Assembly: GCA_964479725.1 (NCBI GenBank)
Contig: CAYZNF010000006.1
Location: 5,518-69,517 of the forward strand
Source: an uncultured Candidatus Saccharibacteria bacterium
GTDB lineage: Bacteria > Patescibacteriota > Minisyncoccia > Minisyncoccales > UBA10102
DNA length: 64,000 bases
Reading direction: 5' to 3'
Positions within the stretch are counted from its first letter, which is position 1. Each line of letters begins with the position of its first letter. Made by a program: the position numbers and the translations under genes. The notes below the pieces were generated by a model. That model was not told the DNA's origin and searched no databases. It saw only the letters and a list, made by a program, of their open reading frames with translations. Below are positions 971-51,191 of this stretch, piece by piece.

Positions 971-2356
971 CTATCTCCACGAAGAAAGCCACATGCGGTT
1001 TTGGAGTGCGTTATCATCCAGGGGAAAGCCGTATGTAAGGGGAATAAAATAGGCAAAAGCTACGAGTGAGGCTAAGCCCAGCACAAGCAAAATAGGCAGG
1101 GCGTATTTTGCTTTGCCGATAATATATGAGAATATCAGTATCGCAAAAACAAGGGGAATGAAATAGTGGTACAGGAACATCACGCGGGAAATGAGCATGA
1201 AAGGCAAAAAACTCACAAAATATCCTGCGAGAAGAAAATAAAGAGTCTCGTCTTTCCGCAGCGAACGGGATAGGAGCAGGCCCAAAAGCGCCAGCCCTAT
1301 GCCCATGGTTGATCCCCACCAAACAACAGGATTTCCCAGGAGATAAATATATCTATTGTCTTCCGTCCAGTAAAAAACCGTCCTTGCCATTAAGGGCCAG
1401 GAATGCCACTCGCTTCCATAAGGATGTGTTGCCGTAAAGTCCTTGTTGGTAAGGTATTTTACTGCGTTCAATTCCAGGAATTTTTCTACGGTATTCAATT
1501 CGCCTTGGCGGAATTTTTCTGACATAAAAGCGTCTCCTGGACCTGCTTTTGGCAAAAGGGCAAAATGCACAGTAAATACGGCAAAGTAAAGCAAAAAGGG
1601 TATTACGGAAAGAAGAAAAATAAATTTAGGGAACAAAAAAATTTTTCTTTCTTCTCTCGGAACAAAAAAATTCACAATCATATCTTTAGCAAAGATAAGT
1701 GCGGCCAACGCAGGAAAAGCAAGACCTGTCCATTTTACCGAAAAACTAAAGGCAAAAAATGCACCTGCAAGAAAAAGAAAGGGTAAGTAATAGTTTTTGC
1801 GGCGCGAGCTAAAGAAAAATGTGAGTCCTAAAACTCCAAACAAAAGTAAAAAAGCGTCGGGCAGAGCCAGACGGGTGTGAGCAAGGAGTCCGTTTTCGAG
1901 GAGGATAAACAGGCCGGCAAAAAAAGAAACAAGCCGGCGAACACCCAGAGAACGCATTAAAAAGTACACGGCAAGAGGCAAAAAGCTTCCAGCCAGGGCA
2001 GGCAATACGCGCAGGGCATGGATATTCGAGAGTTCTTTGCCTATGTGCTCAAAAGAGAAAGAAGCGTCTTGGTAGCCAAAAAGCCATCCGCTCAAGGTTA
2101 TGAGGAGGGAGCCAAGTGGCGGGTGAATATCGAAAAAATATTTGCCGGAAAGGTATCCGTTTGAGAATGTCCCATAATGGACTTCGTCAAATACTACCTG
2201 GTCGGGGTAGGAAATAAAAAGGAAATGCAGTAAAAAACTTGCCAAAAGCAAAAAAGCAATGCCAAAGATGGGTAATTTGCTAGATAGCGTAGAGGGCATA
2301 GTCGGTATTTTCATAAATAAGCTTAAAATTACTGTCGAATAACTGTTTTTGCACAC
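971..2356 (-). CDS. GT-C family dolichyl/polyprenyl-phosphate-mannose protein mannosyltransferase-like glycosyltransferase (PMT/GT39-like)
   Basis: The first-loop motif FDEVHYGTFSNGYLSGKYFFDIHPPLG is typical of PMT/GT39 enzymes, and the protein has many hydrophobic helices. It overlaps the upstream gene by 77 nt, so an internal Met (MKIPTM) may be the true start. Confidence 0.7.
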   Translation of the reverse strand: MCKNSYSTVILSLFMKIPTMPSTLSSKLPIFGIAFLLLASFLLHFLFISYPDQVVFDEVHYGTFSNGYLSGKYFFDIHPPLGSLLITLSGWLFGYQDASFSFEHIGKELSNIHALRVLPALAGSFLPLAVYFLMRSLGVRRLVSFFAGLFILLENGLLAHTRLALPDAFLLLFGVLGLTFFFSSRRKNYYLPFLFLAGAFFAFSFSVKWTGLAFPALAALIFAKDMIVNFFVPREERKIFLFPKFIFLLSVIPFLLYFAVFTVHFALLPKAGPGDAFMSEKFRQGELNTVEKFLELNAVKYLTNKDFTATHPYGSEWHSWPLMARTVFYWTEDNRYIYLLGNPVVWWGSTMGIGLALLGLLLSRSLRKDETLYFLLAGYFVSFLPFMLISRVMFLYHYFIPLVFAILIFSYIIGKAKYALPILLVLGLASLVAFAYFIPLTYGFPLDDNALQNRMWLSSWR

Positions 2357-4037
2357 CCCAGTCGTACTTAACTAAGGGATCGAGCAAAATATATGAAATG
2401 TTGTATTTTTCCAGAACGTCTTTTCGCTGGTAGGGGTTTTGATAAAAAGCTCTTGTATCATCCAGTCTTTTCTGATAAGGAATTCCCCGTGTCCAGAGCC
2501 ACCCTGGATATCCAACGAGTACGGGTTTTCCAGCAAGCGAAGCAACAGGATTAATATGCGAGGGTCCGGTGAGGATAACTGCTTTATCTGGAACGTTTTG
2601 TTTTATGAATTTCGCGGCTTCCCAAGCGTTGGCGGTAAAAAGCACGGGGGGATTATTCCGAATCTGAATTATACGGGGAATAAGGTCTAAAACGGCGCCG
2701 TGCGTGGAGAGGATAAGAAACACGATCAAGAGTCCCCATCCCAATGCTTTCCATGTTGAGGCTATTCGGCCAAAAAGGAAAATAATAGGTATTACCGCGA
2801 AAAATTGAAAGTATACGAGGATTTTGTTGTTATCATAATCCCATGGCTGGAATTGAATGGTTTGCACAAGGAAAAACAGGGCAAAAGCCGCGGCGGCAAA
2901 TGTAAGTATGGGTAATGACTGTTTACCCCTTTTAAACAGATATATTGAAAAAATAAAAAAGGCGGGCAGGATGACGCCGAAGTTCATCCAGGTATAATTA
3001 AGGTAGGCAATCAACTTGGAGAATGCTGTGGGCAGGGGCGGATAAACAACAGATCCGTAGGCTGGATCTGTCATCCATCCCAGGCGAAAGCGCAAGAAAG
3101 ACTGCACGGAGGATTCAAATGCTCCATTGAAGAAGTGGGCGAGATAGGCAAGCTGTGGCAGGGCGGTTGCTCCTCCTATAAGCAAAACAGCAGCGTAATT
3201 TTTAAAGCGGGTAAAATCTTTTTTTAGCAAAGCGCTCACGGCAAAAAATACAAGCATAGTTCCTATGGCAATGAATGAATGAATATGCGAGAGGGGAGCT
3301 ATGCCAAAAAGGATGCCCAAAAGCGCGATATGCCGCTTTTTTAATAAGCCTTCGGTTTTGAGGAGAATAAGCAGAATAACTAAAAATAGAAATAATCCAA
3401 GCAGGAAAGGGTGCTGATGGAGGAATACAAGGCCAAAGGGCGATCCCCAGGCAATATTTTGCTCTGGGTATTGGTTTGCCAATTGGGTAATGAAAGACAC
3501 ATGGTTGACAGCCATGTAGGAAAAAAACTGGGGAATATCCATCCCTTCTTGGAGGAACTTGTCTTTGAGAGTTCCATATGCGCCAAATCCCGATCCAAAA
3601 AGAAAAATCAATACTCCAAAAAGAGCCAGTACCTTGCCTTTGAATATTTTTTGGTATACCAAAAATAGCAGAGCGATATTTGCCAGCGCCAATATTAAAA
3701 TAGGCGCTTGGAAAGCGAACATCCACGAATTGGTAAGGCGCAAGAGTATTCCGCTAAAAAAATTGAGTAAAAAGTGGTAGGTTAGGGGCTCCCCAATGAA
3801 GATAGGTTCTTCCAGGTTAAAGATATTGCCAAAGGCAAACTTGCTTATTTGGGTCATCCTTAAAGCAACGTCCCCATTGCCAGCAAAGGTAGTGAGAATA
3901 TTGCCTTTTTCGTCAATCCAAAACGACGAAACAAGGAAAAATATATGGACAAGGGCAATCGCGGCGAGTACCGACCCTATGCCAATATTGAGCAAGTTAT
4001 TTTTGATCCAGTTTTTTGGGGCAAAAAAAATATTCAT
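2280..4037 (-). CDS. Polytopic membrane protein, candidate second GT-C-type glycosyltransferase with a C-terminal soluble domain
   Basis: 585 aa with more than 10 hydrophobic segments and an acidic first loop (WIDEKGN..GDVAL). The soluble tail begins around NPPVLFTANAWEAAKFIK. It is co-oriented and overlapping with the PMT-like gene. The function is inferred from architecture only. Confidence 0.45.
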   Translation of the reverse strand: MNIFFAPKNWIKNNLLNIGIGSVLAAIALVHIFFLVSSFWIDEKGNILTTFAGNGDVALRMTQISKFAFGNIFNLEEPIFIGEPLTYHFLLNFFSGILLRLTNSWMFAFQAPILILALANIALLFLVYQKIFKGKVLALFGVLIFLFGSGFGAYGTLKDKFLQEGMDIPQFFSYMAVNHVSFITQLANQYPEQNIAWGSPFGLVFLHQHPFLLGLFLFLVILLILLKTEGLLKKRHIALLGILFGIAPLSHIHSFIAIGTMLVFFAVSALLKKDFTRFKNYAAVLLIGGATALPQLAYLAHFFNGAFESSVQSFLRFRLGWMTDPAYGSVVYPPLPTAFSKLIAYLNYTWMNFGVILPAFFIFSIYLFKRGKQSLPILTFAAAAFALFFLVQTIQFQPWDYDNNKILVYFQFFAVIPIIFLFGRIASTWKALGWGLLIVFLILSTHGAVLDLIPRIIQIRNNPPVLFTANAWEAAKFIKQNVPDKAVILTGPSHINPVASLAGKPVLVGYPGWLWTRGIPYQKRLDDTRAFYQNPYQRKDVLEKYNISYILLDPLVKYDWGVQKQLFDSNFKLIYENTDYALYAI

Positions 4038-4091: not shown

Positions 4092-4481
4092 TTGGAGGAA
4101 AATTTAAGGATGTGTTATAATACAAAAATGCGAAAAACACTTTTTTTTCATGCGGGCTGGGTTTCGGCTTTGAGTTTGTTTCCCCGCATGAGTTATGCCC
4201 AAGAAGGGGAACGCGCTCCGGAAATTCCTTACGAAAATCTGCCCGGCATGGAAGCCATATTGCAGTTGGGCGGAGTGATATTCCACTGGTTGCTTATTAT
4301 AGGGCTTGTCATAGCTCCGATTGTCGTTCTGTACGCCGGATTTTTGTTTTTGACGGGAGGAACAAATCCCGAAAATATTTCCAAAGCTAAGCAAGTTCTG
4401 CTGTATGCTATTATAGGGTTGGTAGTAATTATCCTGTCGGGAGCAGTGGTCAACATTGTACGGGATTTGCTGGGAGTATGA
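4092..4481 (+). CDS. Small TrbC/VirB2-type (T4SS-pilin-like) membrane hairpin protein
   Basis: The likely start is MRKTLFF at 4128, with a signal-like N-terminus ending SYAQ. The C-terminus VVLYAGFLFLTGGTNPENISKAKQVLLYAIIGLVVIILSGAVVNIVRDLLGV is paralogous to the tails of 15..965 and 4515..5195. Confidence 0.65.
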   Translation: MEENLRMCYNTKMRKTLFFHAGWVSALSLFPRMSYAQEGERAPEIPYENLPGMEAILQLGGVIFHWLLIIGLVIAPIVVLYAGFLFLTGGTNPENISKAKQVLLYAIIGLVVIILSGAVVNIVRDLLGV

Positions 4482-27072: not shown

Positions 27073-27453
27073 ATGTCATTTACATATTCAAACGAATCCA
27101 ATACATTTTCGGGTCCGAGTACGCTAACCGTCCATATCCGGGAGGGGATGGTACGCAAGGCGGAGCTTCTAGAAGAGCTAGCTGCGCAGCTAAGGTTTCC
27201 TTGGTACTTCGGCCAGAACTGGGATGCGCTCGACGAATGTCTCCAAGATTTCCACTGGATGGATTATGACCGAATAGTGCTAGTTCATCATGATTTGCCT
27301 TTGCAAGACCAGGCCACAGAAATGAGGACATATCTAGAGATTCTCCGAGATGCGTGTGATTTCTGGGCTGCGCGCTCCAGACCCGTTTTTGTCGTTGTAT
27401 TTCCCCCTTCATGGAAGCATCTGATCGAGGCTACTTTGAATACGATTGGCTAG
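27073..27453 (+). CDS. Barstar-family ribonuclease inhibitor (orphan immunity protein)
   Basis: ELLEELAAQLRFPWYFGQNWDALDECLQDFHW matches the barstar core (L..FP.YyG.N.DAL.DCL). No barnase-like gene is adjacent. Confidence 0.7.
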   Translation: MSFTYSNESNTFSGPSTLTVHIREGMVRKAELLEELAAQLRFPWYFGQNWDALDECLQDFHWMDYDRIVLVHHDLPLQDQATEMRTYLEILRDACDFWAARSRPVFVVVFPPSWKHLIEATLNTIG

Positions 27454-27753: not shown

Positions 27754-27942
27754 TTAGCCAATCATGTTTCGAAACACGAAACCGAGGCCGAATACGCCCA
27801 GAAAGATGAAAGCCCACCCTATACGAATGAGTAGTCCGCCAACCTCTTGGCGCTCAGATCGTAGCCTTTGGCATTCCGCAATGAGTTCCTCGCGAGTCAT
27901 CGAGTGCAGGTCCTTTAGTCCTTCATTGTTTTGGATATCCAT
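27754..27942 (-). CDS. Small C-terminally membrane-anchored protein, REELIAECQ paralogue 1
   Basis: MDIQNNEGLKDLHSMTREELIAECQRLRSERQEVGGLLIRIGWAFIFLGVFGLGFVF shares the REELIAECQ motif plus TM architecture with 29480..29647. Confidence 0.45.
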   Translation of the reverse strand: MDIQNNEGLKDLHSMTREELIAECQRLRSERQEVGGLLIRIGWAFIFLGVFGLGFVFRNMIG

Positions 27943-28198
27943 CGTACACCTCGGTGGCATCTGGCATTCAGGGTTCTACTTCCCCCATACCATATGTCCG
28001 AGGTGCGGGCAATATATGTCCTGGGGATACATCAGGGACTGTCCAGTCAGGGGTATTTCTCGAATTGCATTGTTCAGATTGCGGCGATCTGGTGGCGCCA
28101 AGAGGCGGTCGAGTAGCGGCTCAAGTATAGAGCGCCTGCCGTTTGCGGTTCAATACCAAGAGGCCACCTCAAGATGCGAGGTGGCCTCTTGCTTTGCA

Positions 28199-28375
28199 GA
28201 TGGTGCGAAGCTTGTGGATAGAAGTAGGGACGGGGGCGGACCGGTCGCGCAGACGTTCACCTACGACGTCCTCAACCGGCTCACGGAGGTCCAGATCCCC
28301 GATGGCACGGCGGGCGCCGGGGTCTTGACCGGCTACGTCTTTGCTGGTACAGAGAGAGTAGTAACGGATGAATAA
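28199..28375 (+). pseudogene. Rhs/YD-repeat fragment
   Basis: QTFTYDVLNRLTEVQIPDGTAG fits the YD-repeat consensus (xxYDxxNRLTxV). The upstream part of the ORF (27764..) has no protein-like character. Confidence 0.4.
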
Positions 28376-28384
28376 TTGACTCCT

Positions 28385-28771
28385 ATGATACCTAAATCAG
28401 TCGCGCTACGTCTCGTATTGTCCGTGTTGGCCCTCGTCGGCGTGTACATTTTAGGATCTGTTGCGTTTCATCATCTACAGGTTCGGAAACTAACAGCACA
28501 TCACGCCACTGAGTTCGCAATATCCATTCAAACTGACATCGAAAAGGGATGCTTGCTCGACCTACCCAGCGTGTTGCGTGTCTTGGAGTACAGCAAGGAT
28601 AAGGCGGTCGTGTTCGGGAGGGCACCAGATGGATCTTCATTCATCATGAGATTCAGTAGACAAAGGCAAGGAGGGTGGTCAATGATAAATAGCGGTGTAT
28701 GCCACTACGAAGTGCTGAAGTCTAATTCTGGCGGTTCCGCAGATAGCCTTATCTTTCCCTGGTTCTACTGA
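28385..28771 (+). CDS. Hypothetical N-terminally anchored protein, positioned like an immunity gene after the Rhs fragment
   Basis: ATG at 28385, TM segment VALRLVLSVLALVGVYILGSV. It starts within 10 nt of the Rhs-fragment stop. Confidence 0.4.
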   Translation: MIPKSVALRLVLSVLALVGVYILGSVAFHHLQVRKLTAHHATEFAISIQTDIEKGCLLDLPSVLRVLEYSKDKAVVFGRAPDGSSFIMRFSRQRQGGWSMINSGVCHYEVLKSNSGGSADSLIFPWFY

Positions 28772-28833
28772 GAATGTCCCGGCGACGTGGGCAAGCATCT
28801 TCGCACTTCACTCTGGATCACTGCGCTCTATAG

Positions 28834-29028
28834 TCGCTCATCCTTGATCAGACGGGTCAGTTGCGAGCGGATGGGGATGAACAAGCACGGGCCATCGAGG
28901 AGACTCTGATCGTAAACAACCCAGGTTTCAAAAACAAAAGGCATAGCATTAGCCCAAAGAAGGCGATCTACGAAGAGGCTGTTCAGTGGGGAAGACAGTA
29001 TCTCAAGAAGCACGGCTACCTGCGGTAA
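28834..29028 (+). pseudogene. C-terminal fragment of a GIY-YIG/URI-type nuclease toxin domain
   Basis: A start-less frame after the TAG at 28831 reads ...EQARAIEETLIVNNPGFKNKRHSISPKKAIYEEAVQWGRQYLKKHGYLR. The E..LI....P...N pattern matches the distal half of GIY-YIG/UvrC-N-type nucleases. Confidence 0.35.
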
Positions 29029-29052
29029 GACCAGCCAAGGAACTTATCTCTT

Positions 29053-29277
29053 ATGAATCTGCGCATCCTCAAGAAGTCAAGGAAAGTCCCGCGTATGGGC
29101 GACATCTTTGCACTCCAAGCAAGGGACAACCAGTATCTATTTGGCCGGGTGATCCGAACTGATGCCCGGTACGGCTCTCTTGATGAGTTGATTCTCATAT
29201 ACATATACCGCACATTCTCACCTGAGAAACACCATCATAGGTTGCGGGAGTTGGAAACTAGGGGTGTTGAGGGCTGA
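29053..29277 (+). pseudogene. Truncated immunity-protein-like ORF (Imm26-like N-terminus)
   Basis: KKSRKVPRMGDIFALQARDNQYLFGRVIRTD resembles the N-terminal GD(v/i)Fa.pl.dg.y.fGrV pattern of immunity proteins. At 74 aa it is probably truncated. It lies 25 nt after the toxin fragment. Confidence 0.35.
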
Positions 29278-29479
29278 TCCCTCCACTTGTGAAGAGGGAC
29301 CGGGATCTTCGGGGGTCATTCCGCAGCGCTGCGGCGTCGGAGCAGGGTGCTTGACAGCGATTGCGGAATACCCCAGAAAGAGGGTAGAACAAACGGTGGG
29401 TCACAAGCCCGGGCTGCGGCGCGGGCTCTGGCCCTAGTCTGCGCCCCGGCTGGTGACCTTCCGATGAGGGAGGTCATAC

Positions 29480-29647
29480 ATGGAATCTCAGAGAAGGCGA
29501 CCCCTGGAGGAGCTCAGCCGAGAGGAATTGATCGCGGAATGCCAGGCCTCGCGCAAACGCACAGCCAAGGCTTGGGTGTACAGCTTGTCTGCGGGAGCAT
29601 GGATTGCAGGCATGACCGGTATCATTCTCACCCTCGTCCTCTGTTAG
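29480..29647 (+). CDS. Small C-terminally membrane-anchored protein, REELIAECQ paralogue 2 (55 aa, below the ORF-track cutoff)
   Basis: Manual translation gives MESQRRRPLEELSREELIAECQASRKRTAKAWVYSLSAGAWIAGMTGIILTLVLC*. Confidence 0.45.
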   Translation: MESQRRRPLEELSREELIAECQASRKRTAKAWVYSLSAGAWIAGMTGIILTLVLC

Positions 29648-29745
29648 ACACCCAAGTATTGCTGGCAAGGAAGGATCTCCAGAGGTAAACTACCACCCTT
29701 AGTTCTACTGAGGGTGGTTTTTCCTAATGAGCAGTTCCTTGGATT

Positions 29746-30124
29746 TTGAGAGGGGCGTCGCAAGCGTTCGTAGCGAGAGTTCTATTCGTGGTCGGCAGTG
29801 CGAGGAGGCTCATAGGTGTTGCAAAGGAGGAGTTCCAGGAGCGCAAGGCCGAACTCGAGCACGAGATCGCGGCGGCGCGCATCTCCCTGAACGAGTGCCG
29901 GATCGACGAGCTCGACGTGGCGGGGCTGCTGGCGTACGCCGCGGCGTTCATGCGGGACCTCCCCCGGCAGTGGTTTGACCTACCCCCCGAGCGGCGGACG
30001 AGGTTCCAACGCCTCGTGTTTCCCGAGGGAATCCCGTACGACCGGGAGGGCGGATTTGGAACCTGCCGTTTGGGGCTTCTGTACGAGCTGAACCGCCGGT
30101 TTGCGGCCGGCGGATCACGCGGGG
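29746..30124 (+). pseudogene. C-terminal remnant of a large serine recombinase-type integrase, ending at tRNA-Arg
   Basis: Coiled-coil-like EEFQERKAELEHEIAAARISLNE, then DLPPERRTRFQRLVFPEGIPYDREGGFGTCRLGLLYELN, reminiscent of recombinase C-terminal tails. There is no catalytic N-terminal domain, and the ORF runs into the tRNA. Confidence 0.4.
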
Positions 30125-30197
30125 TGTGCCCGAGAGGATTTGAACCTCTGGCCTCTTCCTTCGCAGGGAAGCGCTCTATCCACTGAGCTACGGGCAC
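30125..30197 (-). tRNA. tRNA-Arg (anticodon GCG)
   Basis: Reverse complement GTGCCCGTAGCTCAGTGGATAGAGCGCTTCCCTGCGAAGGAAGAGGCCAGAGGTTCAAATCCTCTCGGGCACA; anticodon arm CTTCC-CTGCGAA-GGAAG. Confidence 0.85.
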
Positions 30198-30310
30198 AAT
30201 TAGCCAAAGCAAAAGCTTGGCGTACGCATTGTAGCTTATTTCCTCTAAAAAATAAAGGTTGATTTTTAGGAGATTTAGGGTACAATGAGGCTGGTTTGAC
30301 ATTAGCCCCT

Positions 30311-30397
30311 GGAGAGGTGGCTGAGCGGCTGAAAGCAGCACACTGCTAATGTGTTAAGGGAGCAATCCCTTCGAGGGTTCGAATCCCTCCCTCTCCG
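30311..30397 (+). tRNA. tRNA-Ser (anticodon GCU)
   Basis: Acceptor GGAGAGG/CCTCTCC, anticodon loop CTGCTAA, long variable arm AAGGGAGCAATCCCTT, T-arm GAGGG-TTCGAAT-CCCTC. Confidence 0.85.
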
Positions 30398-30463
30398 CCT
30401 TCGGTCGATGAAGCGACCTTCGGCGGACACAGTCCGCCAGAAGGTTGCGAAGGCGACCTTCGC
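30397..30463 (+). repeat. GC-rich triple-hairpin element, copy 1 (directly after tRNA-Ser GCU)
   Basis: gccttcggtcgatgaagcgaccttcggcggacacagtccgccagaaggttgcgaaggcgaccttcgc. Three stems are visible (cgaag/cttcg, ggcggac/gtccgcc, cgaag/cttcg). It matches 31259..31325 at 61 of 67 positions by direct count. Confidence 0.85.
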
Positions 30464-30509
30464 CCGCAATGTGCTATAAATAACTAAATAACAACTTAAT
30501 TTTTATTCG

Positions 30510-30902
30510 ATGAGCGAAGAAGCTGGGCAACGACCAAGAACGCTTACCAAAACCTATCATATTATTTTCGACGCGATCGGAGTAGATCAATCTTTACTGC
30601 AAAGTGAAGAATTTATCTTTAGTCTTTTGCTTGAAATCCCAAAAAAGATTGATATGAAGATTCTTTCAGGCCCTCATCTTGTTCGAGATTATGATACGGG
30701 GCACGAGGGGCTAAGCGGATTTGCCATTATTGATTTTTCTCATGTCTCAATCCATACCTTTGCTGATAGCCAAGAAGCATACATAGATATTTTTTCCTGC
30801 AGGCCTTTCGACGAAAAAGCCATTCGGAATTATCTTTTCGAGAAGCTAGGCGTTGCGCCAGAACAAGTGCAAACTCATGAAGTAAATTATAGGTGGGGAT
30901 AG
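30510..30902 (+). CDS. S-adenosylmethionine decarboxylase-family (pyruvoyl, SpeH/SpeD class 1-like) proenzyme
   Basis: FAIIDFSHVSIHTFADSQEAYIDIFSCRPFD corresponds to the (E)SH(I/L)SIHTWPE...D(I/V)F(T/S)C core of small bacterial/archaeal AdoMetDC. The residue before the processing Ser is Phe rather than Glu. Confidence 0.65.
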   Translation: MSEEAGQRPRTLTKTYHIIFDAIGVDQSLLQSEEFIFSLLLEIPKKIDMKILSGPHLVRDYDTGHEGLSGFAIIDFSHVSIHTFADSQEAYIDIFSCRPFDEKAIRNYLFEKLGVAPEQVQTHEVNYRWG

Positions 30903-30936
30903 GAAGAGGGGAGCGAAAAAAACAGGTTAGTAAAAC

Positions 30937-30972
30937 GGAGGGGTGTCCGAGCGGTTTAAGGAGACAGTCTTG
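30937..30972 (+). pseudogene. 5' half of a tRNA-Ser-like gene (with duplicated leader), no contiguous 3' half
   Basis: GGAGGGGTGTCCGAGCGGTTTAAGGAGACAGTCTTG parallels the first 36 nt of the intact tRNA-Ser at 31060. About 27 nt of the upstream leader are also similar (30910.. vs 31033..). Similarity ends inside the anticodon loop. Confidence 0.6.
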
Positions 30973-31059
30973 CTCCCTGTTTGTCCAAGAGCAGAGCGAT
31001 TGGCAACAAACAGCAGTCCGCCGCAATGGAGTGGAGGCGGAAAAACTGGTTAGTAAGGC

Positions 31060-31146
31060 GGAGAGGTGGCCGAGTGGTTGAAGGCGACAGTCTTGAAAAC
31101 TGTTATATCCGAAAGGATATCGTGGGTTCGAATCCCACCCTCTCCG
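31060..31146 (+). tRNA. tRNA-Ser (anticodon UGA)
   Basis: Acceptor GGAGAGG/CCTCTCC, anticodon arm ACAGT-CTTGAAA-ACTGT, long variable arm TATATCCGAAAGGATAT, T-arm GTGGG-TTCGAAT-CCCAC. Confidence 0.85.
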
Positions 31147-31230
31147 CCTTGCTAGTGAGTTCTCCGCCTTCTCCCTCGACTTCGCTCTGGATTCGGCGGA
31201 TTGCTCTCGGTTACAAAATCAAAGATTTTG

Positions 31231-31258
31231 ACCGAGAGGGAAGAATCCCACCCCCTCT
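31231..31258 (+). pseudogene. Degenerate tRNA 3'-end fragment (T-arm/acceptor-like)
   Basis: gagagggaagaatcccaccccctctg resembles ..GGGTTCGAATCCC(A/T)CCCTCTCCG. Its CCCCTCT could pair with the GGAGGGG of the 5' fragment at 30937 (G-U at 1:72). Confidence 0.45.
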
Positions 31259-31325
31259 GCCTTCGGTCGCCGAAGCGACCTTCGGCGGACGAAGTCCGCT
31301 AGAGGGTTGCGAAGGCGACCTTCGC
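31259..31325 (+). repeat. GC-rich triple-hairpin element, copy 2
   Basis: gccttcggtcgccgaagcgaccttcggcggacgaagtccgctagagggttgcgaaggcgaccttcgc; see copy 1. Confidence 0.85.
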
Positions 31326-31329
31326 ATAT

Positions 31330-31569
31330 ATGAGTTACACTGTTTACATTCTAAAATGTGCAGACGGAAAACCGTATACTGGCTGCACAGATAATCTGGA
31401 AGAAAGATTATATAGACACAACAGTGGTCATGTTCCGGCAACTGAAAATCGCCGACCCGTTAAACTTATCACGCATGTAGTTTTTATTGATAAATACAAA
31501 GCTTTTGAATTTGAGAAATACTTAAAGTCTGGTTCCGGTCGAGCCTTCTTGAATAAGCATTTAATCTAA
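31330..31569 (+). CDS. Small GIY-YIG nuclease-superfamily protein (UPF0213-like, 79 aa)
   Basis: YTVYILKCADGKPYTGCTDNLEERLYRHNSG...FEKYLKSGSGRAFL, i.e. GIY/YIG-type N-terminus, conserved R..H and E motifs. Confidence 0.75.
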   Translation: MSYTVYILKCADGKPYTGCTDNLEERLYRHNSGHVPATENRRPVKLITHVVFIDKYKAFEFEKYLKSGSGRAFLNKHLI

Positions 31570-31573
31570 AATT

Positions 31574-32125
31574 ATGTTTGACCTTTTTAAGAAAAAACAG
31601 CCAACACGATCTGAAGATGAATTGCGCCTAAAAGCCGCCGGAGTTAATTTTGCTATCTTTACAATTTCAAACGAAATCAATAAGTCCTTGCAAAAGGAAG
31701 TCAAGGAATTAAATAAATTAAAACAAGAAGAAATAAATCATATATTTTTTGTGGTGTCTTATGTAGCATTATTTCAAGCTCAAAAATTTTTCTGGGAGAA
31801 TTTTATTCGTGATGAGGAAAACGCAAGAATCTTTGAATCTCATTTATTTCGTATGTTTGAAAAAACATCGGGCGTTGATCCAAAATCACACATACAAGAT
31901 TTAGTTGAGTATGTCCAAAAGGGGGAGCCCTCGAGAGAAGTTCAATATATTGGCAGTAAAATATGCAAAATACTGGGAAAGGAAGATGCATTTTTGATGC
32001 TGGAAATCTCAAAAGTATTTGCCTCATTTCTGAAACATGGTTTTTTCGAATCAATGAAGCGAGCTTGGGAATTGCCTAACGAAACATTGAAAGAGATGGC
32101 TGATAAATTGGAAAATTCGGATTAG
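31574..32125 (+). CDS. Hypothetical, predicted all-helical protein
   Basis: Clean 183-aa ORF, 4 nt after the GIY-YIG stop. No recognised motif. Confidence 0.45.
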   Translation: MFDLFKKKQPTRSEDELRLKAAGVNFAIFTISNEINKSLQKEVKELNKLKQEEINHIFFVVSYVALFQAQKFFWENFIRDEENARIFESHLFRMFEKTSGVDPKSHIQDLVEYVQKGEPSREVQYIGSKICKILGKEDAFLMLEISKVFASFLKHGFFESMKRAWELPNETLKEMADKLENSD

Positions 32126-32256
32126 AAAGAATTTGCCGTCAAACCGAACGAAACTCGGAGTTCCGCTGAAAGCGGAACGAAAAACTTGAAATCGTCCAAT
32201 CCAAAGGGGTCGTTTCCGCAGACGGGCGGAAGGGGATTTTTTTGGGGGGAATTCCG

Positions 32257-32338
32257 CCCGCCGACCTGCCCGCCGAAGTTAGAACGCAGGCGGGGCCCAG
32301 CCAGTTCCGTTCGGATATTTTCAGACAGACACCGCCAA
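32257..32338 (+). repeat. 82-bp perfect direct repeat, left copy
   Basis: cccgccgacctgcccgccgaagttagaacgcaggcggggcccagccagttccgttcggatattttcagacagacaccgccaa is identical to 33658..33739 by direct comparison. Confidence 0.95.
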
Positions 32339-32422
32339 CCGCCGCTTAATCGAGTTGATGGAAGGGAAAATCAGCCAAGTTTTAAGCGAGGTATAGTTGT
32401 GTATAACTTCTTTACATTGCTA

Positions 32423-32451
32423 TTGACAAGAAATTCTACATCGCTTACAAT
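32423..32451 (+). promoter_or_regulatory. Consensus sigma70-type promoter upstream of the toxin-antitoxin pair
   Basis: TTGACA-17 nt-TACAAT (ttgacaagaaattctacatcgcttacaat), about 78 nt upstream of ATG 32529. Confidence 0.6.
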
Positions 32452-32528
32452 GGAGGTGTGAGTATTATTAATTCAGAAAATATCCTTATGTCTGAAGATA
32501 AACATAACGCAATATTTTCAAAATAACT

Positions 32529-33311
32529 ATGCTTGCTAAATTTATTCAAGAACAACGCAAAAAGCGCAACCTAACGCAAGAATTTTTGGCGTCCGCGCTT
32601 AAAATTTCTCGCCCGACTTATATGCAAATTGAGCAGGGTGAGCGAGATTTAACTATTACCGAAGCCAAGAAATTGGCGGAAGTTTTTGATATTCCATTTG
32701 AAAATTTTTTGGAGGGAAAAGAAGACATGAAAATCGTTGTAAAGATTGAGGGTAAAAAGAAACAAAAACAAGAAGCCGAGGGCGAAATTCGCATCAGTAT
32801 CCCGCAAGAGAAAGCGGAAAAGTTTGAGCAGACGCTTTTGTATATCCTCGCAAAAATCGGCGGCAAGCCGAACATCGGGCAAACCGTGCTCTATAAGTTA
32901 TTGTATTTTATTGATTTTGATTATTACGAAAAATTTGAGGAACAACTGATTGGCGCAAAATACATTAAAAATCATTATGGCCCCACCCCAGTGATGTTTG
33001 CCAAGTTTATTGAACGTCTGGAAAAAAAGGGTAGGGTTGAGAAGATAAAAAGTAAGTTTTACAAGCACGAGCAGACCAAGTACCTCGTCAATCCGAACGA
33101 GGCGCTTAACTTATCTGCGCTTTCGGCGCAGGAGCTTGCTCATATTGATTGGGAAATTGACCGTCTTGGCGATTTAACCGCCACGCAGATTTCCGCGTTA
33201 TCTCATCTTGATACGCCATGGATTATAGCAAAAGACAGAGAGCCGCTGGAATACGAGCATGTATTCTATCGACCAGAAGAAACCTCTGTAAGAGAATATG
33301 AACCGCTTTGA
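32529..33311 (+). CDS. Antitoxin: XRE-family HTH fused to a Panacea (DUF4065/SocA-like) domain
   Basis: HTH: IQEQRKKRNLTQEFLASALKISRPTYMQIEQGERDLTITEAKKLAEVF. Panacea-like: GGKPNIGQTVLYKLLYFIDFDYYEKFEEQLIGAKYIKNHYGPTP. Confidence 0.75.
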   Translation: MLAKFIQEQRKKRNLTQEFLASALKISRPTYMQIEQGERDLTITEAKKLAEVFDIPFENFLEGKEDMKIVVKIEGKKKQKQEAEGEIRISIPQEKAEKFEQTLLYILAKIGGKPNIGQTVLYKLLYFIDFDYYEKFEEQLIGAKYIKNHYGPTPVMFAKFIERLEKKGRVEKIKSKFYKHEQTKYLVNPNEALNLSALSAQELAHIDWEIDRLGDLTATQISALSHLDTPWIIAKDREPLEYEHVFYRPEETSVREYEPL

Positions 33312-33654
33312 TGCTCTCGCAGAATTTGAAAAAGAATTCAAGCGACTTTCTAAAAAATATAAAACACTAGATGATGACTTTGAAAAGTTTAAGAAACTTT
33401 TACTTGTCGCCCCAACTGGCGTTGGGAAAAATTTTGTCATCATCCATTCAACTGAAACTATCAATATAGTGAAAGCGCGTATGGCGTGTCGCGCTCTCCG
33501 TGATCGTTCTTTGCGGATTATTTACGCATACCACGTCGCCGCTTCAAAAGTTGAATTTATTGAGATATACTTCAAAGGCGAAAAAGAGAACGAAGATCGA
33601 GAGCGAATCAAGGAGTATTTGAAAAATCAAAACCCCGCCCGCCACCCAATTTGA
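33298..33654 (+). CDS. Toxin candidate, RelE/ParE-superfamily-like
   Basis: 14-nt overlap with the antitoxin. KARMACRALRDRSLRIIYAYHVAASKVEFIEIYFKGEKENEDRERI fits the RelE/ParE-like ...R(I/V)IY......i.f+.iy.K... pattern. Confidence 0.55.
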   Translation: MNRFDALAEFEKEFKRLSKKYKTLDDDFEKFKKLLLVAPTGVGKNFVIIHSTETINIVKARMACRALRDRSLRIIYAYHVAASKVEFIEIYFKGEKENEDRERIKEYLKNQNPARHPI

Positions 33655-33657
33655 GGT

Positions 33658-33739
33658 CCCGCCGACCTGCCCGCCGAAGTTAGAACGCAGGCGGGGCCCA
33701 GCCAGTTCCGTTCGGATATTTTCAGACAGACACCGCCAA
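33658..33739 (+). repeat. 82-bp perfect direct repeat, right copy
   Basis: Identical to 32257..32338. It starts 4 nt after the toxin stop codon. Confidence 0.95.
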
Positions 33740-33765
33740 GTTTTACATTCTGCAATTTTGACTTA

Positions 33766-33794
33766 TTGACATCTTGGGACGGGAGAATTACAAT
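33766..33794 (+). promoter_or_regulatory. Consensus sigma70-type promoter upstream of the hydrogenase-like operon
   Basis: TTGACA-17 nt-TACAAT (ttgacatcttgggacgggagaattacaat), 52 nt upstream of ATG 33846. Confidence 0.6.
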
Positions 33795-33845
33795 AGTGGC
33801 GGATAATGTGCGGTTTGTGTAAGGAAATTTGCGCCATAGGCGCGT

Positions 33846-34400
33846 ATGTTTCAACTTTTAAAGAAAATAGCCACTACCCCAAAAACTGTAATTCCAAGAA
33901 GTTCTTTTGCTGTTTCCCCTAATGGCGAGCTCGATAAGCTTGGGGGACAGCTTCAAACGGCCGTAAACAAATGGTTTAAGGGTTCCCTGGCAATTAGGGA
34001 AGTGGACGCGGGGTCTACCAACGCCTGTGAGCAGGAATTGGTGGCCCTATCAAACTCTTTTTATGATATAGAGCGGTTTGGCATACACTTTGTGGCTTCT
34101 CCCAGGCACGCTGATATATTGTTTGTTACTGGGCCTGTTTCGCGCAATATGGCATATGCCCTGCGCAGCGCTTACGAAGCGACTCCCACTCCGAAAATAG
34201 TGGTGGCGGTAGGGGATGATGCCATTTCCGGAGGAATTTTTAAAGGTTCTTATGCCGTTTTAGACGGTGTTGCAAGCGTGATTCCTGTTGATTTTGAAAT
34301 TTCGGGAGATCCTCCATCGCCCGCAGATGTTCTGCGCGCGCTTGTTTCTATAGTTGAAAAAATCGGCGAAGAAAAGAGTCGTGTCAAAAAACACTCTTGA
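33846..34400 (+). CDS. NuoB/HycG/MbhJ-like small subunit with 3 of 4 Fe-S cysteine ligands substituted (Ehr-type)
   Basis: IREVDAGSTNACEQEL...ERFGIHFVASPRHADILFVTGPVSRNM...VAVGDDAISGGIF...VIPVDFEISGDPPSP aligns with the recalled HycG sequence VDCGGCNGCEIE...GACGNSGG...IPGCPPTP. Ligand positions read T, C, D, D. Confidence 0.8.
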   Translation: MFQLLKKIATTPKTVIPRSSFAVSPNGELDKLGGQLQTAVNKWFKGSLAIREVDAGSTNACEQELVALSNSFYDIERFGIHFVASPRHADILFVTGPVSRNMAYALRSAYEATPTPKIVVAVGDDAISGGIFKGSYAVLDGVASVIPVDFEISGDPPSPADVLRALVSIVEKIGEEKSRVKKHS

Positions 34401-39549: not shown

Positions 39550-41118
39550 ATGAATATCGAAGAAATCATTTCGGCATATATTCCTTCAAAAACAGCCATC
39601 CAAAAAGAGGGAAATATGATTTTGTTCCCTATTTTACCCAAGGATATCGAACGAGTATGCCTGTCTTTTTACAATCAATATCACTTGCCGCTAAAGACCG
39701 CAGCGGCAACAGACGACAGAAAGAAAGATGGTTTTTTTCGAGTTTTCTATGTATTTGGCGTGCCGGGAAGCCAGTTGTTTGTAGCTCCTTTTATTGCCCT
39801 GAAGGAAGGGGAGTCTTTTCCTTCTCTTGCGACCAAAATCCATCAGCTTTCCTGGTATGAAAGGGAGATAAAGACATTTTTTGGCATAAACCCGGAAGGG
39901 CATCCCGATCCCAGGCCGATTATTTTGCACGAAAATTGGCCCGGCAATGTTTACCCTTTGCGTAAGGATTTTGATTGGCAGTATCGTCCGCCCAAGGCGC
40001 GCGCTTCTTATCCGTTTCAACGGGTGGAAGGTGAGGGTGTGTATGAAATTCCGGTGGGGCCGGTGCACGCCGGTATTATAGAGCCTGGCCATTTTCGTTT
40101 TAGCGTGGTGGGAGAAGAAATCGTTTCTCTCGAAGCTCGTTTGGGCTATACGCATAAGGGCATAGAAAAACTTTTTGAAGTATTGCCCTTTGAAAAGAAA
40201 GTAATGCTTTCGGAAAGGGTTTCGGGCGACAGTTCTTTCTCCCATTCCTTGGCGTATTGCCAGGCAGTGGAAAAGCTCGGCGATGCGGAGGTTCCCAAAA
40301 AAGCTCTTTATTTGAGGGTTATATATGCTGAACTTGAAAGAATCGCCAATCACTTAGGCGATATCGGAGCTATTATGATGGATACTGCTTTTGCGTTTGG
40401 CGGAAGCAACGGGGCCAGATTGCGGGAAATAGTCATGCAATGGAACGAAAAGCTTACCGGAAGCCGTTTTTTGCGCGGAGTGAATACGGTGGGCGGAGTA
40501 ACGAAAGATATTCCGTCTGAAATCAAGCAGGATTTCAAAGCCAGCCTAGCCGCCCTGGAAAAAGATTTTAAAGAAGTTATTGAAATAGCTGAAGGCACCG
40601 CTACCTTGATGAACAGGTTGCATGGAACCGGTTCCATAGATCGCACCGTTGCTTTGGATCATGGGATATTGGGGGTAGCTGGAAAAGCAGTGGGTATAGC
40701 GCAGGATACTCGCATAGACTTTCCTTACGCCGCCTATAAAGAAATGCCCCTTCGCATGGCTTTAGAGTCAAGCGGGGATGTGTATGCCCGTTTTAAGGTT
40801 CGAATAAGCGAAGTTTTGAATTCTATCGAAATCATACGGCATGCTTTGCGCACCATGCCAAACGGGGATATTTGCACGCTTTCGTTGCCTCGGCTAAAAA
40901 AGCAAAGCTTTGCTTTCAGCCTTGTAGAGGGATGGAGGGGGGATATTGCGTACTTTGTAGCCACGGATGAACAGGGAACGATAACGCGATGTAAGGTGCG
41001 CGATACGTCATTTTTGAATTGGGCTATTATGGGATACGCCGTAACTAATGATGTGGTTCCCGATTTTCCTTTGATCAACAAAAGTTTCAACCTGTCGTAT
41101 TCCGGAAACGATTTATAG
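39550..41118 (+). CDS. NuoC+NuoD / HycE/HyfG-like large subunit lacking all four NiFe cysteine ligands (Ehr-type)
   Basis: NuoC-like N-terminus (SWYEREIKTFFGINPEGHPDPRPIILHENWP..YPLRKDF). GPVHAGIIEPGHFRFSVVGEEIVSLEARLGYTHKGIEKLFE is present. The L1 position reads SERVSGDSSFSHS (expected RxCGxCxxxH). The C-terminus reads FNLSYSGNDL* (expected DPCxxCxxR). Confidence 0.85.
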   Translation: MNIEEIISAYIPSKTAIQKEGNMILFPILPKDIERVCLSFYNQYHLPLKTAAATDDRKKDGFFRVFYVFGVPGSQLFVAPFIALKEGESFPSLATKIHQLSWYEREIKTFFGINPEGHPDPRPIILHENWPGNVYPLRKDFDWQYRPPKARASYPFQRVEGEGVYEIPVGPVHAGIIEPGHFRFSVVGEEIVSLEARLGYTHKGIEKLFEVLPFEKKVMLSERVSGDSSFSHSLAYCQAVEKLGDAEVPKKALYLRVIYAELERIANHLGDIGAIMMDTAFAFGGSNGARLREIVMQWNEKLTGSRFLRGVNTVGGVTKDIPSEIKQDFKASLAALEKDFKEVIEIAEGTATLMNRLHGTGSIDRTVALDHGILGVAGKAVGIAQDTRIDFPYAAYKEMPLRMALESSGDVYARFKVRISEVLNSIEIIRHALRTMPNGDICTLSLPRLKKQSFAFSLVEGWRGDIAYFVATDEQGTITRCKVRDTSFLNWAIMGYAVTNDVVPDFPLINKSFNLSYSGNDL

Positions 41119-50438: not shown

Positions 50439-50505
50439 CCAAAAACCTCTTCCTAATTTATACGTACGGATAAATAAGAAAGAGGTTTAAACGGATAAAG
50501 GGTGG

Positions 50506-51078: not shown

Positions 51079-51191
51079 AGTAACTTGTTACATGAGTTAT
51101 TTGATAAGCTTAAAAGCACTTCCTTAATTATACGTACGTATAATTAAGGAAGTAAATTGTAGATAAAAAGGGGAGGGGGTATAATAAGCAA

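Follow-up and report, generated by a model that had tools for sequence, protein, structure and literature searches.

Identical 82-nucleotide repeats around a Panacea-type toxin–antitoxin pair belong to a conserved GC-rich element whose 3′ end appears to be half of a serine recombinase attachment site in Candidate Phyla Radiation bacteria

The 64-kb window analyzed here, that is, the whole stretch of 64,000 nucleotides (nt) from contig CAYZNF010000006.1, contains a toxin–antitoxin (TA) gene pair that lies between two direct repeats. All coordinates are positions in this window, and L-numbers designate the loci with which it was compared. The repeat is an 82-nt sequence, CCCGCCGACCTGCCCGCCGAAGTTAGAACGCAGGCGGGGCCCAGCCAGTTCCGTTCGGATATTTTCAGACAGACACCGCCAA, that is present twice on the plus strand in copies that are 100% identical and 1401 nt apart from start to start. 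A search that allowed up to three mismatches returned these two copies and no others in the 64-kb window, and matches in dinucleotide-preserving shuffles numbered 0 out of 100. Local alignment of both flanking regions showed that the similarity ends exactly at the edges of the 82 nt and detected no homology between the two repeat neighborhoods outside them. The original prediction for this DNA, which was made from its letters, was right in holding that the copies are base-for-base identical and that the right copy starts at the fourth base after the toxin stop codon (33652–33654). It had also held that the only genes between the copies are an antitoxin with a helix-turn-helix (HTH) and a Panacea domain and an overlapping open reading frame (ORF); these are the credible genes, to which a 58-nt remnant of a methylase gene and a promoter-like site have now to be added (Table 1). 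The 82-mer is the 3′ part of a conserved GC-rich element of about 140 nt, here called E, that is found in bacteria of the Candidate Phyla Radiation (CPR).

Table 1. Features in and around the repeat pair (aa, amino acids)
Feature	Position	Strand	Remarks
tRNA-Ser(tga)	31060..31148	+	Called by ARAGORN and Rfam; same orientation as the E copies
183-aa hypothetical gene, candidate cargo of the left module	31574..32125	+	From the ORF list; no Pfam family
Full-length E with nested GC-rich inserts	32126..32338	+	Comparison with the 32-copy canonical consensus and with 123 + 71 extracted copies
Left 82-nt repeat	32257..32338	+	Forms the 3′ section of the full E; first base in the 3′ arm of the big hairpin, at CCCGCCGA
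CCGCCA core closing the left copy	32332..32337	+	Same as the tRNA-Ser 3′ end; junction with the methylase-gene remnant
Methylase remnant	32339..32396	+	58 nt, the last 19 codons (...NRRLIELMEGKISQVLSEV, stop) of an N6_Mtase/Methylase_S restriction-modification gene
Promoter-like site of the TA operon	32423..32451	+	TTGACA-17-TACAAT; 11/12 in a consensus scan
Antitoxin, 260 aa, XRE-type HTH and Panacea (SocA_Panacea/DUF4065)	32529..33311	+	Pfam
Putative toxin, 118 aa	33298..33654	+	Overlaps the antitoxin gene by 14 nt; CPR-wide family
Right 82-nt repeat	33658..33739	+	Probably the TA module's own E; 5′ ~70 nt gone relative to the homologue in L017
CCGCCA core closing the right copy	33733..33738	+	AGTT... 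follows, as at other junctions of E with a flank
Promoter-like site of the Oxidored_q6/Mrp-like operon	33766..33794	+	TTGACA-17-TACAAT; read as resident DNA to the right of the island

Pfam assigned both HTH_3 (E value 4.5e-14) and SocA_Panacea (PF13274; E value 2.7e-17, residues 121–231, 64.1 bits versus a cutoff of 25.7) to the antitoxin, which also gave a weak match to the NCBIfam model SocA_antitoxin. The putative toxin has 1092 homologues, and the best 120 of them are 67–100% identical to it and come, where the source is named, exclusively from Patescibacteria or from unclassified metagenome-assembled genomes (MAGs). Apart from noise it had no Pfam hit at an E value of 10 or less; NCBIfam returned nothing, and no PDB sequence matched below an E value of 0.027. 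An AlphaFold2 model of the protein (predicted local distance difference test score [pLDDT] 72.3; predicted template modeling score [pTM] 0.64) has the topology a-a-b-b-b-b-a, where a is a helix and b a strand. The top Foldseek matches of the model in PDB had E values of 0.06–0.08 and template modeling (TM) scores of 0.44–0.55, with nothing at an E value of 0.001 or less; they included HigB2 (5ja8_C; probability 0.98, E value 0.06, TM score 0.51–0.55) and 8a0x_C (probability 0.89). Judging from the model, a RelE/ParE-like toxin with a HigB/RelE-like fold is plausible. The firmer assignment to this family in the original prediction goes further than the data, as there is no sequence-profile match and the structural match to HigB2 is weak and comes from a model of this pLDDT. 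We also considered and rejected the idea that the C-terminal tail of the toxin was made by the junction with the repeat; the tail (NQNP.HHPI) is conserved in homologues and is therefore native.

The same gene pair, with products of 260 and 118 (or 110) aa, is present in at least six other, unrelated neighborhoods: adjacent to Tn7-TnsA-like/ResIII genes (L004–L013), to pth (L014) or to tRNA-Ser(gga) (L017), after a gene for an 822-aa N6_Mtase+Methylase_S protein (L205–L210), after cas1-cas2 (L212) and next to ClpB/trypsin genes (L214). Alignment with three of these loci (L004–L013, L014 and L017) showed a DNA identity of 83–86%, and the homology, which spans positions ~32332/32381 to 33667, has its limits no more than a few bases from the inner repeat edges. 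The promoter region upstream of the pair is conserved in the same three loci. On these comparisons the TA pair is a discrete, horizontally mobile module, in agreement with the original prediction that it is a cassette. Its left boundary can be followed in L205, in which the 822-aa protein ends in ...IIAANRRLIELMEGKISQVLAEI and its gene is followed at once by the same promoter and TA pair; a fragment in L014 carries the same methylase tail. At the junction the methylase gene of L205 reads ATCGCCGCCAA followed by CCGCCGCTTAAT and the window reads ACACCGCCAA followed by CCGCCGCTTAAT, with 7 nt (CCGCCAA) in common. As a separate observation, in both L214 (4357–6115) and L017 (5357–6264), two different genomes, the PanA TA pair has one and the same other TA pair, a 73-aa ribbon-helix-helix (RHH)-like protein and a ParE_toxin, no more than ~1.5 kb behind it. 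TA cassette pairs may travel together.

Element E reads AAGAATTTGCCGCCAAAG AAAAACTTGAAATCGTCC TTTCCGCTCCGGTTCAAGGCGAG GCGGGCGGAA-GGGGGGTGTGGGGGG-AATTCCGCCCGCC GAGCCCAGCCAGTTCCGTTC GGATATTTTCAAACAGACACCGCCA, and the 82-mer of the window consists of its ~52-nt 3′ core and a 30-nt nested hairpin (CCTGCCCGCCGAAGTTTCAACGCAGGCGGG), which follows CCCGCCGA in ~15% of E copies. We scanned for E with exact 22-mers, a middle 22-mer against metagenomes of the Joint Genome Institute (JGI) and a 3′ 22-mer against one genome per species. The former yielded 68 metagenome loci and the latter more than 119 genome stretches. The hosts cover most CPR classes and include Parcubacteria classes, Microgenomates classes, Saccharibacteria, Peregrinibacteria, WWE3, Berkelbacteria and others. 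For 20 canonical copies from different species, pairwise identity averaged 94%, and copies in a 32-copy alignment, which was too invariant for a covariation test, varied almost without compensation. The 3′ boundary of E is sharp at ACACCGC(CA), and the flanks past this boundary are unrelated to one another. E is not a high-copy repeat: there are mostly one or two copies per locus and one to three per genome stretch. Many of the matches sit at contig ends.

Relative to genes, E is placed like a cassette boundary. A co-oriented ORF of at least 60 codons ended no more than 25 nt upstream of the 5′ anchor of E in 40 of 85 loci, as compared with 7.8% of random positions, and the 85 genes directly upstream of E represented 81 Pfam families, with methyltransferases, HNH nucleases, SHOCT, glyoxalase, NUDIX, beta-lactamase-like and multicopper oxidase proteins among the examples. 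Direct pairs of E tips surround small gene sets in L017 (a ParE TA pair, 729 nt), L019 (2.8 kb), L075 (an IS256-like transposase) and L187 (SHOCT and DsrE, 806 nt), and inverted pairs are found in L090, L118, L131, L153 and L178. The original prediction had tied the repeat to this one cassette and had set against that the view of a common intergenic repeat. Neither holds in full: with more than 180 loci and at least 81 cargo families E is widespread and far from specific to the TA cassette, yet its association with cassette boundaries is real. A specific tie of E to the 183-aa gene, to the GIY-YIG gene or to the TA pair was likewise not upheld by tblastn searches and gene positions: tblastn found the TA pair elsewhere only in L114 (the same contig as L017) and gave no match elsewhere to the 183-aa gene, and GIY-YIG genes are present in 11 loci in no fixed position.

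Several loci, among them L090 and L153, have E ~110 nt upstream of a gene for a large serine recombinase (LSR) of ~500 aa with Resolvase, Recombinase and Zn_ribbon_recom domains; in L153 the protein has 506 aa and is encoded at 3039..1519. Between E and this gene lies a sequence that reads GTTAGGAAATGAAGTCATTGGCTCGCC... and that we call the arm; the order E, CCGCCA, arm, 29 nt and LSR start codon (ATG) is seen in L028, L034, L090, L100, L118, L153 and L156. The LSR, a fragment of it or the arm is present in 43 of the 187 E loci. E and the recombinase gene also share sequence. The first 36 nt of E are identical to LSR codons ~28–39 (KEFAAKEKLEIV), and the last 25 nt of E together with the next ~90 nt form a 91–100% inverted repeat of LSR codons 453–491. 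In L100 the LSR ORF reads ...CATTTCCTAAC, passes through TGGCGG and continues into the antisense 3′ end of tRNA-Ser(tga).

The junctions of the arm lead to the same tRNA genes. In all 42 of 42 cases the arm directly follows CCGCCA, and the sequence upstream is a tRNA-like 3′ end in 19 of them, E in 14 and something else in 9. ARAGORN placed the end of a tRNA-Ser at the start of the arm in most of 18 loci, with anticodons tga, cga, gga, gct and act; in L179 the called tRNA-Ser is ~110 nt from the arm. Furthermore, the same 147 nt (99.3% identical) stand behind tRNA-Ser(tga) in L101 and behind E in L099, with a homology that begins in CCGCCA. Four types of junction are present, namely, tRNA joined to trailer (attB), E joined to arm (attP-like), tRNA joined to arm (attL) and E joined to trailer (attR). 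As far as sequence comparison can tell, these four are the classical signature of site-specific recombination, with the tip of E as the putative P half-site and CCGCCA as the candidate common core. The 3′ end of the repeat (...ACACCGCCA) therefore appears to be half of an attachment site of a tRNA-Ser-targeting LSR.

The repeat had originally been likened to an att or attC site, and in the light of these junctions the first likeness is partly right and the second is not supported. E lacks the R″/R′ GTTRRRY boxes of attC; the lone GTT motif in the 82-mer (GTTAGAA) misfits GTTRRRY and has no RYYYAAC partner, and the enzyme concerned is a serine recombinase and not IntI. The pairing of CCCGCC with GGCGGG that had been pointed out does make a short hairpin, but the 82-mer as a whole folds no better than shuffled sequence (z +0.82 for the plus strand and +0.16 for the minus strand). 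We therefore rejected an attC or integron identity for E.

A smaller kind of element is common among the E loci. We recognized 14 instances (~9 distinct contexts, five with the same cargo) of mini-elements of 0.9–3.2 kb in which tRNA-Ser is joined to the arm, an HTH gene and one to three cargo genes follow, and E is joined to the flank. They contain no recombinase gene. The HTH gene encodes an XRE-type protein of 65–68 aa, and a homologue of it is present in 62 of the 187 E loci. The mini-elements and the spread of the HTH gene imply that E cassettes without a recombinase of their own are the common state of the family.

We note in passing an unusual arrangement of the recombinase gene itself. 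The LSR ORF (codons 1–452 and the 29-nt leader) is enclosed by inverted repeats of 88–113 nt that are 91–100% complementary, one corresponding to LSR codons 453–491 and the other lying upstream of the start codon (L100, 5987–6076 and 7467–7556; L153, 1568–1680 and 3071–3183; L028, 68–155 and 1552–1639). Inversion of the segment would exchange the C-terminal tail of the protein, E-encoded versus tRNA-antisense, and the arrangement may be an invertible recombinase switch.

How do the two copies in the window relate to this family? The left E is complete and begins immediately after the stop codon of the 183-aa gene (TAG, 32123–32125). It consists, from 5′ to 3′, of AAAGAATTTGCCGTCAAA, a nested hairpin, AAAAACTTGAAATCGTCC, the big hairpin GGGCGGAA/TTCCGCCC, the 30-nt nested hairpin and the tip GGATATTTTCAGACAGACACCGCCA, and L018, L042, L052 and L053 align with window positions 32129–32338 at 77% identity. 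L055 has the same end of the 183-aa gene followed by E (94% over window positions 32074–32143) and a different right flank. With the end of the gene and E together in front of other DNA, that locus assigns the left E to the 183-aa gene.

The right copy, which is without the 5′ part, has its counterpart behind the TA pair elsewhere. L017 presents, in order, tRNA-Ser(gga), CCGCCA joined to GCTAGGAAATGG (a 13-nt arm remnant), a methylase-tail remnant, the promoter, the TA pair, the toxin stop codon and a full E (GAGGCCCCGCCGCCCGAAAAATCC...GGCGGGCGGAAGGGG...TTCTGCCCGCCGACC...), after which come a second TA pair (RHH and ParE) and another E tip. The full E of L017 starts after the stop codon with GAGGCCCCGCCGCC, ~70 nt and CCCGCCGACC..., and by comparison the right copy of the window has lost ~70 nt between two CCCGCCG motifs. 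Altogether, E-like sequence stands directly after the toxin stop codon in four of six other contexts (L004, L017, L205/L209 and L214), in three of which (L004, L205/L209 and L214) it is decayed and reads GAGGTCCC(G/A)CCG.... L014 has a mere trace like an E tip after the toxin, and L211/L212 have no recognizable E there.

Finally, the two copies share variants that set them apart. Both have TTAGAA in place of the TTTCAA or TTTTAA of 68 of 68 metagenome copies, and both have CAGACAG in place of the CAAACAG of nearly all others. These shared variants uphold the earlier view that perfect identity points to a recent copying event.

The reading that we favor, and consider reasonably probable, is that the repeats are the E right ends of two adjacent, LSR-type small integrative cargo modules that were later homogenized. 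Its observed basis consists of the E family with its types of junction, the position of E in modules and the linkage of the TA pair to E. E would be the right end of small integrative cargo elements of CPR bacteria that are moved by the ~500-aa LSR into the 3′ end of tRNA-Ser genes, with CCGCCA, common to the tRNA-Ser 3′ end and the end of E, as the recombination core. In the attP-type layout the 25-nt tip of E would lie on one side of the core, and the arm with the LSR or the small HTH gene on the other; integration would then join the tRNA to the arm (attL) and the cargo with its E to the former tRNA trailer (attR). The window would contain two such E-terminated modules, head to tail downstream of tRNA-Ser(tga), both stripped of arm, HTH gene and recombinase gene. 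The first would comprise the GIY-YIG gene, the 183-aa gene and the full E, and the second the methylase-gene remnant, the promoter, the PanA antitoxin, the toxin and an E without its 5′ ~70 nt, lost between the CCCGCCG microhomologies. The modules would meet where the CCGCCA core of the first abuts the look-alike CCGCCAA of the methylase gene, by secondary-site recombination or by a microhomology deletion. Gene conversion, or the copying of one E from the other, would have made the two E copies identical; we infer this homogenization from the identity of the copies and the private variants that they share.

According to this interpretation, the direct repeat results from the juxtaposition of two modules with the same att-end sequence and is not a target duplication produced by insertion of the TA pair. 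The original claim that the TA pair was inserted at this element is therefore not favored; each E would belong to the module on its left. The anchor of the island is likely tRNA-Ser(tga), to judge from the family, whose attB would be the 3′ end of tRNA-Ser. A variant with two full elements and two independent deletions was considered and then rejected.

A number of points weigh against this interpretation. No arm remnant follows tRNA-Ser(tga) in the window, and the tie to that tRNA is circumstantial. Nor does the 64-kb window contain an LSR gene, an arm or the HTH gene of the mini-elements (a GC-rich ORF at 29746–30186 has no significant similarity to the LSR), so that present mobility would require a recombinase from elsewhere or the action of RecA on the 82-nt repeats; excision of the TA pair by recombination between the repeats, which had been proposed at the outset, is possible in principle from their sequence. 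The sequence after the left core (CCGCCGCTTAAT) is unlike the GTT... half-site found elsewhere, and the junction may be a plain microhomology deletion. The ends of modules that arrived independently are not expected to be 100% identical, and a further step of conversion has to be assumed to reconcile them. L101 and L099 come from different MAGs, and the tRNA-Ser upstream in L099 is tRNA-Ser(gga), so that they are not a clean pair of empty and occupied alleles; an orthologous empty site was not found for the window either (L046, L050 and L073 have ~16 nt of the right flank in common and are not orthologous). The interpretation does not account for the exact crossover site, for the role of the LSR inverted repeats or for the copy of LSR codons 28–39 at the 5′ end of E. 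Lastly, the assemblies are metagenomic throughout, and E is an inter-genome repeat that can break or mis-join contigs.

Two other histories of the window have to be weighed, both of which we regard as unlikely. One is insertion in a single step with duplication of the repeat. A single original E would have lain between the 183-aa gene and the Oxidored_q6 operon, and the TA pair would have entered by two microhomology-mediated template switches, out at the E end CCGCCAA into a methylase–TA donor and back at CCCGCCG, with the 82 nt replicated twice. Such an event would account for copies that are identical down to their private variants, for homology that halts exactly at the 82-nt edges and for 7-nt microhomology at both inner junctions (CCGCCAA in the L205 methylase gene and CCCGCCG after the toxin stop codon in L017 and L004). 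However, the presence of E-like sequence after the toxin in most other contexts, in full in L017, means that the right copy needs no duplication, and the CCCGCCGA junction recurs in unrelated loci (L022, L027, L038, L049, L056, L060, L075 and L076), which suggests a site prone to deletion or recombination over a one-off switch.

The other history, to which we give the same small weight, is a Campbell-type and reversible integration, in which a circle that carried the TA pair and the 82 nt of E recombined with a resident E, through RecA within the 82 nt or through an LSR acting in trans at CCGCCA. Reversal of the reaction would excise the pair again, as in the original prediction. The geometry of the direct repeat suits the integration of a circle, E cassettes without a recombinase are common, attP-like junctions of E with the arm exist, and the contig break in a sister assembly exactly at the right copy (see below) could be caused by heterogeneity or by a circular or tandem form. 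What follows the left core is a truncated methylase tail, however, and not the arm as in the 42 arm junctions, so that the circle would have had no normal attP; moreover, recombination between independent E copies would yield chimeras unless donor and recipient were already identical, and the window has no recombinase gene. Given the E behind the toxin in most other contexts and the armless left junction, both histories are disfavored.

A near-identical MAG bears on the question of whether the arrangement was produced by assembly. GCA_016188315.1, of the same Ca. Wildermuthbacteria lineage, was found by an exact-protein match. Its contig 39 corresponds to window positions 28464–33739, with the 183-aa gene, the left copy, the TA pair and the right copy, and ends exactly at 33739, and its contig 52 begins at 33650, 8 nt ahead of the right copy, and runs into the Oxidored_q6 operon, so that the two contigs overlap by 90 nt. 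As the break at the right copy shows, assemblers have difficulty with this repeat. The two assemblies differ by a 66-nt indel (31354–31419, deleted in GCA_016188315.1, which destroys the GIY-YIG gene), by a 20-nt indel (32200–32219, deleted in GCA_016188315.1 in the 5′ part of the left E), by ~47 nt near 39830–39876 and by a few single-nucleotide polymorphisms (SNPs). Between 31420 and 33739 there are three SNPs, all in the antitoxin gene; owing to these and to a different start call there was no exact-protein match for the antitoxin. By virtue of the indels and SNPs the window and GCA_016188315.1 are separate assemblies, and both back the succession of 183-aa gene, E and TA pair and that of toxin end, 82-nt E and operon. 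Two further observations are that the ~47-nt difference falls in the downstream operon and that a Logan contig from SRR12113420 ends exactly at 32198, the deletion point in the left E. The source samples are of the NC_groundwater series, and SRR12113420 contains this population.

We consider it very unlikely that the repeat pair is an assembly artefact, in which a foreign TA segment was threaded between two passes of one collapsed E node and the copies are identical by construction. E matches are often at contig ends, the sister contigs break at the right copy with their 90-nt overlap, and 82 nt exceeds the k-mer sizes common in short-read assemblers (the k of these assemblies is not known). 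Against an artefact, two non-identical assemblies make the same two joins (in the second join, the toxin end reads TTTGAGGT), the window copies have variants that are absent from the E of other organisms, contrary to a borrowed consensus node, and L017 independently has the same TA pair followed by E. Least probable of all is that E acts for the most part as a functional RNA or as a terminator-like 3′ element, moves with genes and is linked to the recombinase incidentally, in which case the repeat would mean no more than that two genes have the same 3′ UTR element: although E stands immediately 3′ of co-oriented genes, holds an 11-bp GC hairpin and contains terminator-like matches, Rfam has no match to it either at the gathering threshold (whole window) or at an E value of 10 or less (32100–33900 and one canonical copy), the 82-mer is unexceptional in its folding, the ~94% identity across classes comes with almost no compensatory variation, the hairpin loop is inverted at the DNA level in L099, and the CCGCCA junction common to tRNA-Ser and the arm would go unexplained.

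Other kinds of mobile repeat were also considered for E and rejected. As a dispersed repeat of the miniature inverted-repeat transposable element (MITE) or repetitive extragenic palindrome (REP) type it would be anomalous, with no target site duplication, ends of weak inverted similarity and its few copies per genome stretch. An insertion sequence (IS) with terminal inverted repeats fails as well; there is no target site duplication, and the LSR gene and the arm account for the inverted repeats.

We also made observations on E outside the typical hosts and on its internal variation. Exact E tips were present in MAGs not labeled as CPR, namely, Nitrospinota, Dadabacteria, a delta proteobacterium (on a 459-kb contig), Promineifilaceae, Desulfaltia, Bdellovibrionales, Anaerolineales, Thermoanaerobaculaceae, Armatimonadota and Acidobacteriota. 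The occurrences are those in L092, L096, L139, L146, L173–L176, L182, L189 and L193 and in several "Gammaproteobacteria" binchicken MAGs, and the GC content of the loci ranges from 26% to 61%. They could reflect mis-binning or mislabeling, or transfer beyond the CPR. In L099 (E at 4305–4450, minus strand) the loop of the big hairpin is reverse-complemented (GGCGGGCGGAATTCCCCCCACACCCCCCTTCCGCCCGCC), a flip at the DNA level between the hairpin arms. In L021, L033, L049, L067, L075, L080 and L083, GC-rich palindromic units (of the types CCTGCCTGCCGCAGGCAGG and ...GGTTCGACAAGCTCACC...) are inserted at fixed points in E, and in P0015, a toxin homologue of 142 aa, such a unit is inserted in frame in the toxin gene (LPVESSKQAMHIGRQACLSGRQAD). 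In CPR genomes these palindromic units have the look of tiny mobile hairpins that form a second layer.

The window holds further repeats and irregular segments. The last 19 nt of tRNA-Ser(gct) and 64 nt of its trailer (30381–30463) recur 862 nt downstream (31243–31325) with 89% identity, and the two copies enclose an AdoMet_dc gene, a tRNA-Ser-like 5′ fragment (30906–30981, 78% identical to 31029–31104) and tRNA-Ser(tga). The pair has the appearance of another, older duplication of the att type at a tRNA-Ser gene. The segment 25100–30200 is GC-rich (up to 68%, versus 46% for the window), adjoins tRNA-Arg(gcg) and has broken ORFs; it includes an RHS-repeat-like fragment (27764–28375), a coiled-coil ORF without a family match (29746–30186) and an ORF (27073–27453) that is possibly a barstar-like immunity gene, from a reading of its sequence for which no family search was made. 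The segment is possibly a decayed foreign island or a mis-joined piece. Seven tandem units of ~162–186 nt, 70–100% identical, occupy 12625–13911 inside an apparent large coding region, a 113-nt repeat pair is found at 16261 and 16564, and a 43-nt inverted repeat (50449–50491 and 51110–51152, 81% complementary) has its arms 618 nt apart. Close by, at 51477–51508, the GC-rich motif CCCCTCCTTCGCCAAGGCTTCGGCGGGCAAGT is like an inverted version of the nested hairpin in the 82-mer.

Gene movement among the tiny, host-dependent CPR bacteria is poorly understood, and plasmids, phages and integrative elements have seldom been linked with these bacteria. We tentatively put forward, as a possibility short of an even chance, that the features described above make up, jointly, an undescribed gene-cassette shuttle common to CPR bacteria. 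Its LSR would target the CCGCCA 3′ end of tRNA-Ser genes and carry an attP core in its own C-terminal codons, with its ORF between near-perfect inverted repeats as a possible invertible or self-splitting switch; it would mobilize in trans a large population of recombinase-less mini-cassettes (arm, HTH gene, cargo and E), and ongoing transfer between lineages would keep the ~140-nt E ~94% identical across CPR classes and possibly beyond. If so, the shuttle would be an integron-like capture platform with a serine recombinase that delivers TA, restriction-modification and metabolic genes into reduced genomes, and the window would show two cassettes accreted at one site.

Several uses follow from recognizing E. 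With one 22-mer, any genome can be searched for cargo cassettes, for the recombinase and for the tRNA-Ser sites of integration. That E is nearly identical across classes implies recent gene flow over deep CPR lineages and so makes horizontal transfer in the CPR directly testable. Once E is recognized, many contig breaks and spurious GC-rich "hypothetical proteins" of CPR MAGs are also explained, and a compact LSR with candidate attP and attB sites and an unusual gene architecture is of possible interest to builders of recombinase tools.

Searches of the literature by sequence string and by keyword returned no description of E. What appears to be undescribed is the LSR, the CCGCCA core, the conserved right end, the att core within the ORF, the inverted repeats and the CPR-wide spread; tRNA-targeted integration, cargo cassettes, non-autonomous derivatives and tandem accretion are known already from tycheposons and from cis-mobilizable elements (CIMEs) and integrative and conjugative elements (ICEs), and by analogy from integrons. 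As to the TA pair, PanAT systems are overlapping, mobile and widely distributed pairs whose antitoxin combines Panacea/DUF4065 with an HTH (Kurata et al., PNAS 2022, PMC8832971). By its Panacea antitoxin and its bicistronic pairing, the pair in the window is a predicted new member of this kind; unlike those systems, its partner is a putative toxin, known from sequence and without a recognized family.

Tycheposons and related tRNA-targeting cargo islands are known from Prochlorococcus, and a large serine recombinase serves a minority of the tycheposons (Hackl et al., bioRxiv 10.1101/2020.12.28.424599). Both they and the E family are small and integrative, occupy tRNA genes including tRNA-Ser, carry variable cargo, leave partial-tRNA or att repeats and build islands with tandem junctions. 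Tycheposons have mostly tyrosine recombinases together with replication modules, whereas the E family has an LSR, sizes of 1–3 kb and a single small HTH gene. The E family further differs in its ~140-nt GC-rich right end, ~94% conserved across CPR classes, and in an att core in the 3′ end of the recombinase ORF, and it is known from sequence. The CIMEs and ICEs of streptococci accrete at the 3′ ends of tRNA or other genes by means of tyrosine integrases and short att repeats. They resemble the E family in having recombinase-less, att-flanked modules in tandem by the integration site and direct att repeats around cargo, but their repeats are the attL and attR of one element, whereas each E in the window would be the right end of a different module.

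Integron cassettes, including the TA cassettes of the Vibrio superintegron, likewise have a conserved 3′ element of ~60–140 nt that is a recombination site, and like E cassettes they carry very diverse cargo, TA pairs included, that is promoterless or self-promoted. E departs from attC in having no R″/L″-L′/R′ organization, no GTTRRRY core and no IntI but a serine recombinase, in being conserved in sequence and not in structure, and in being present in one or two copies per locus and not in long arrays. Finally, the predicted LSR of the E family is like the integrases of phiC31, Bxb1 and the TnpX/TndX type in its Resolvase, Recombinase, Zn ribbon and coiled-coil parts and in the short core of its candidate attP and attB sites. 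Unlike these phage and ICE enzymes, it would target the 3′ ends of several tRNA-Ser isoacceptors and have the attP core in its own C-terminal codons, its ORF is bracketed by inverted repeats, and it is accompanied by many non-autonomous derivatives.

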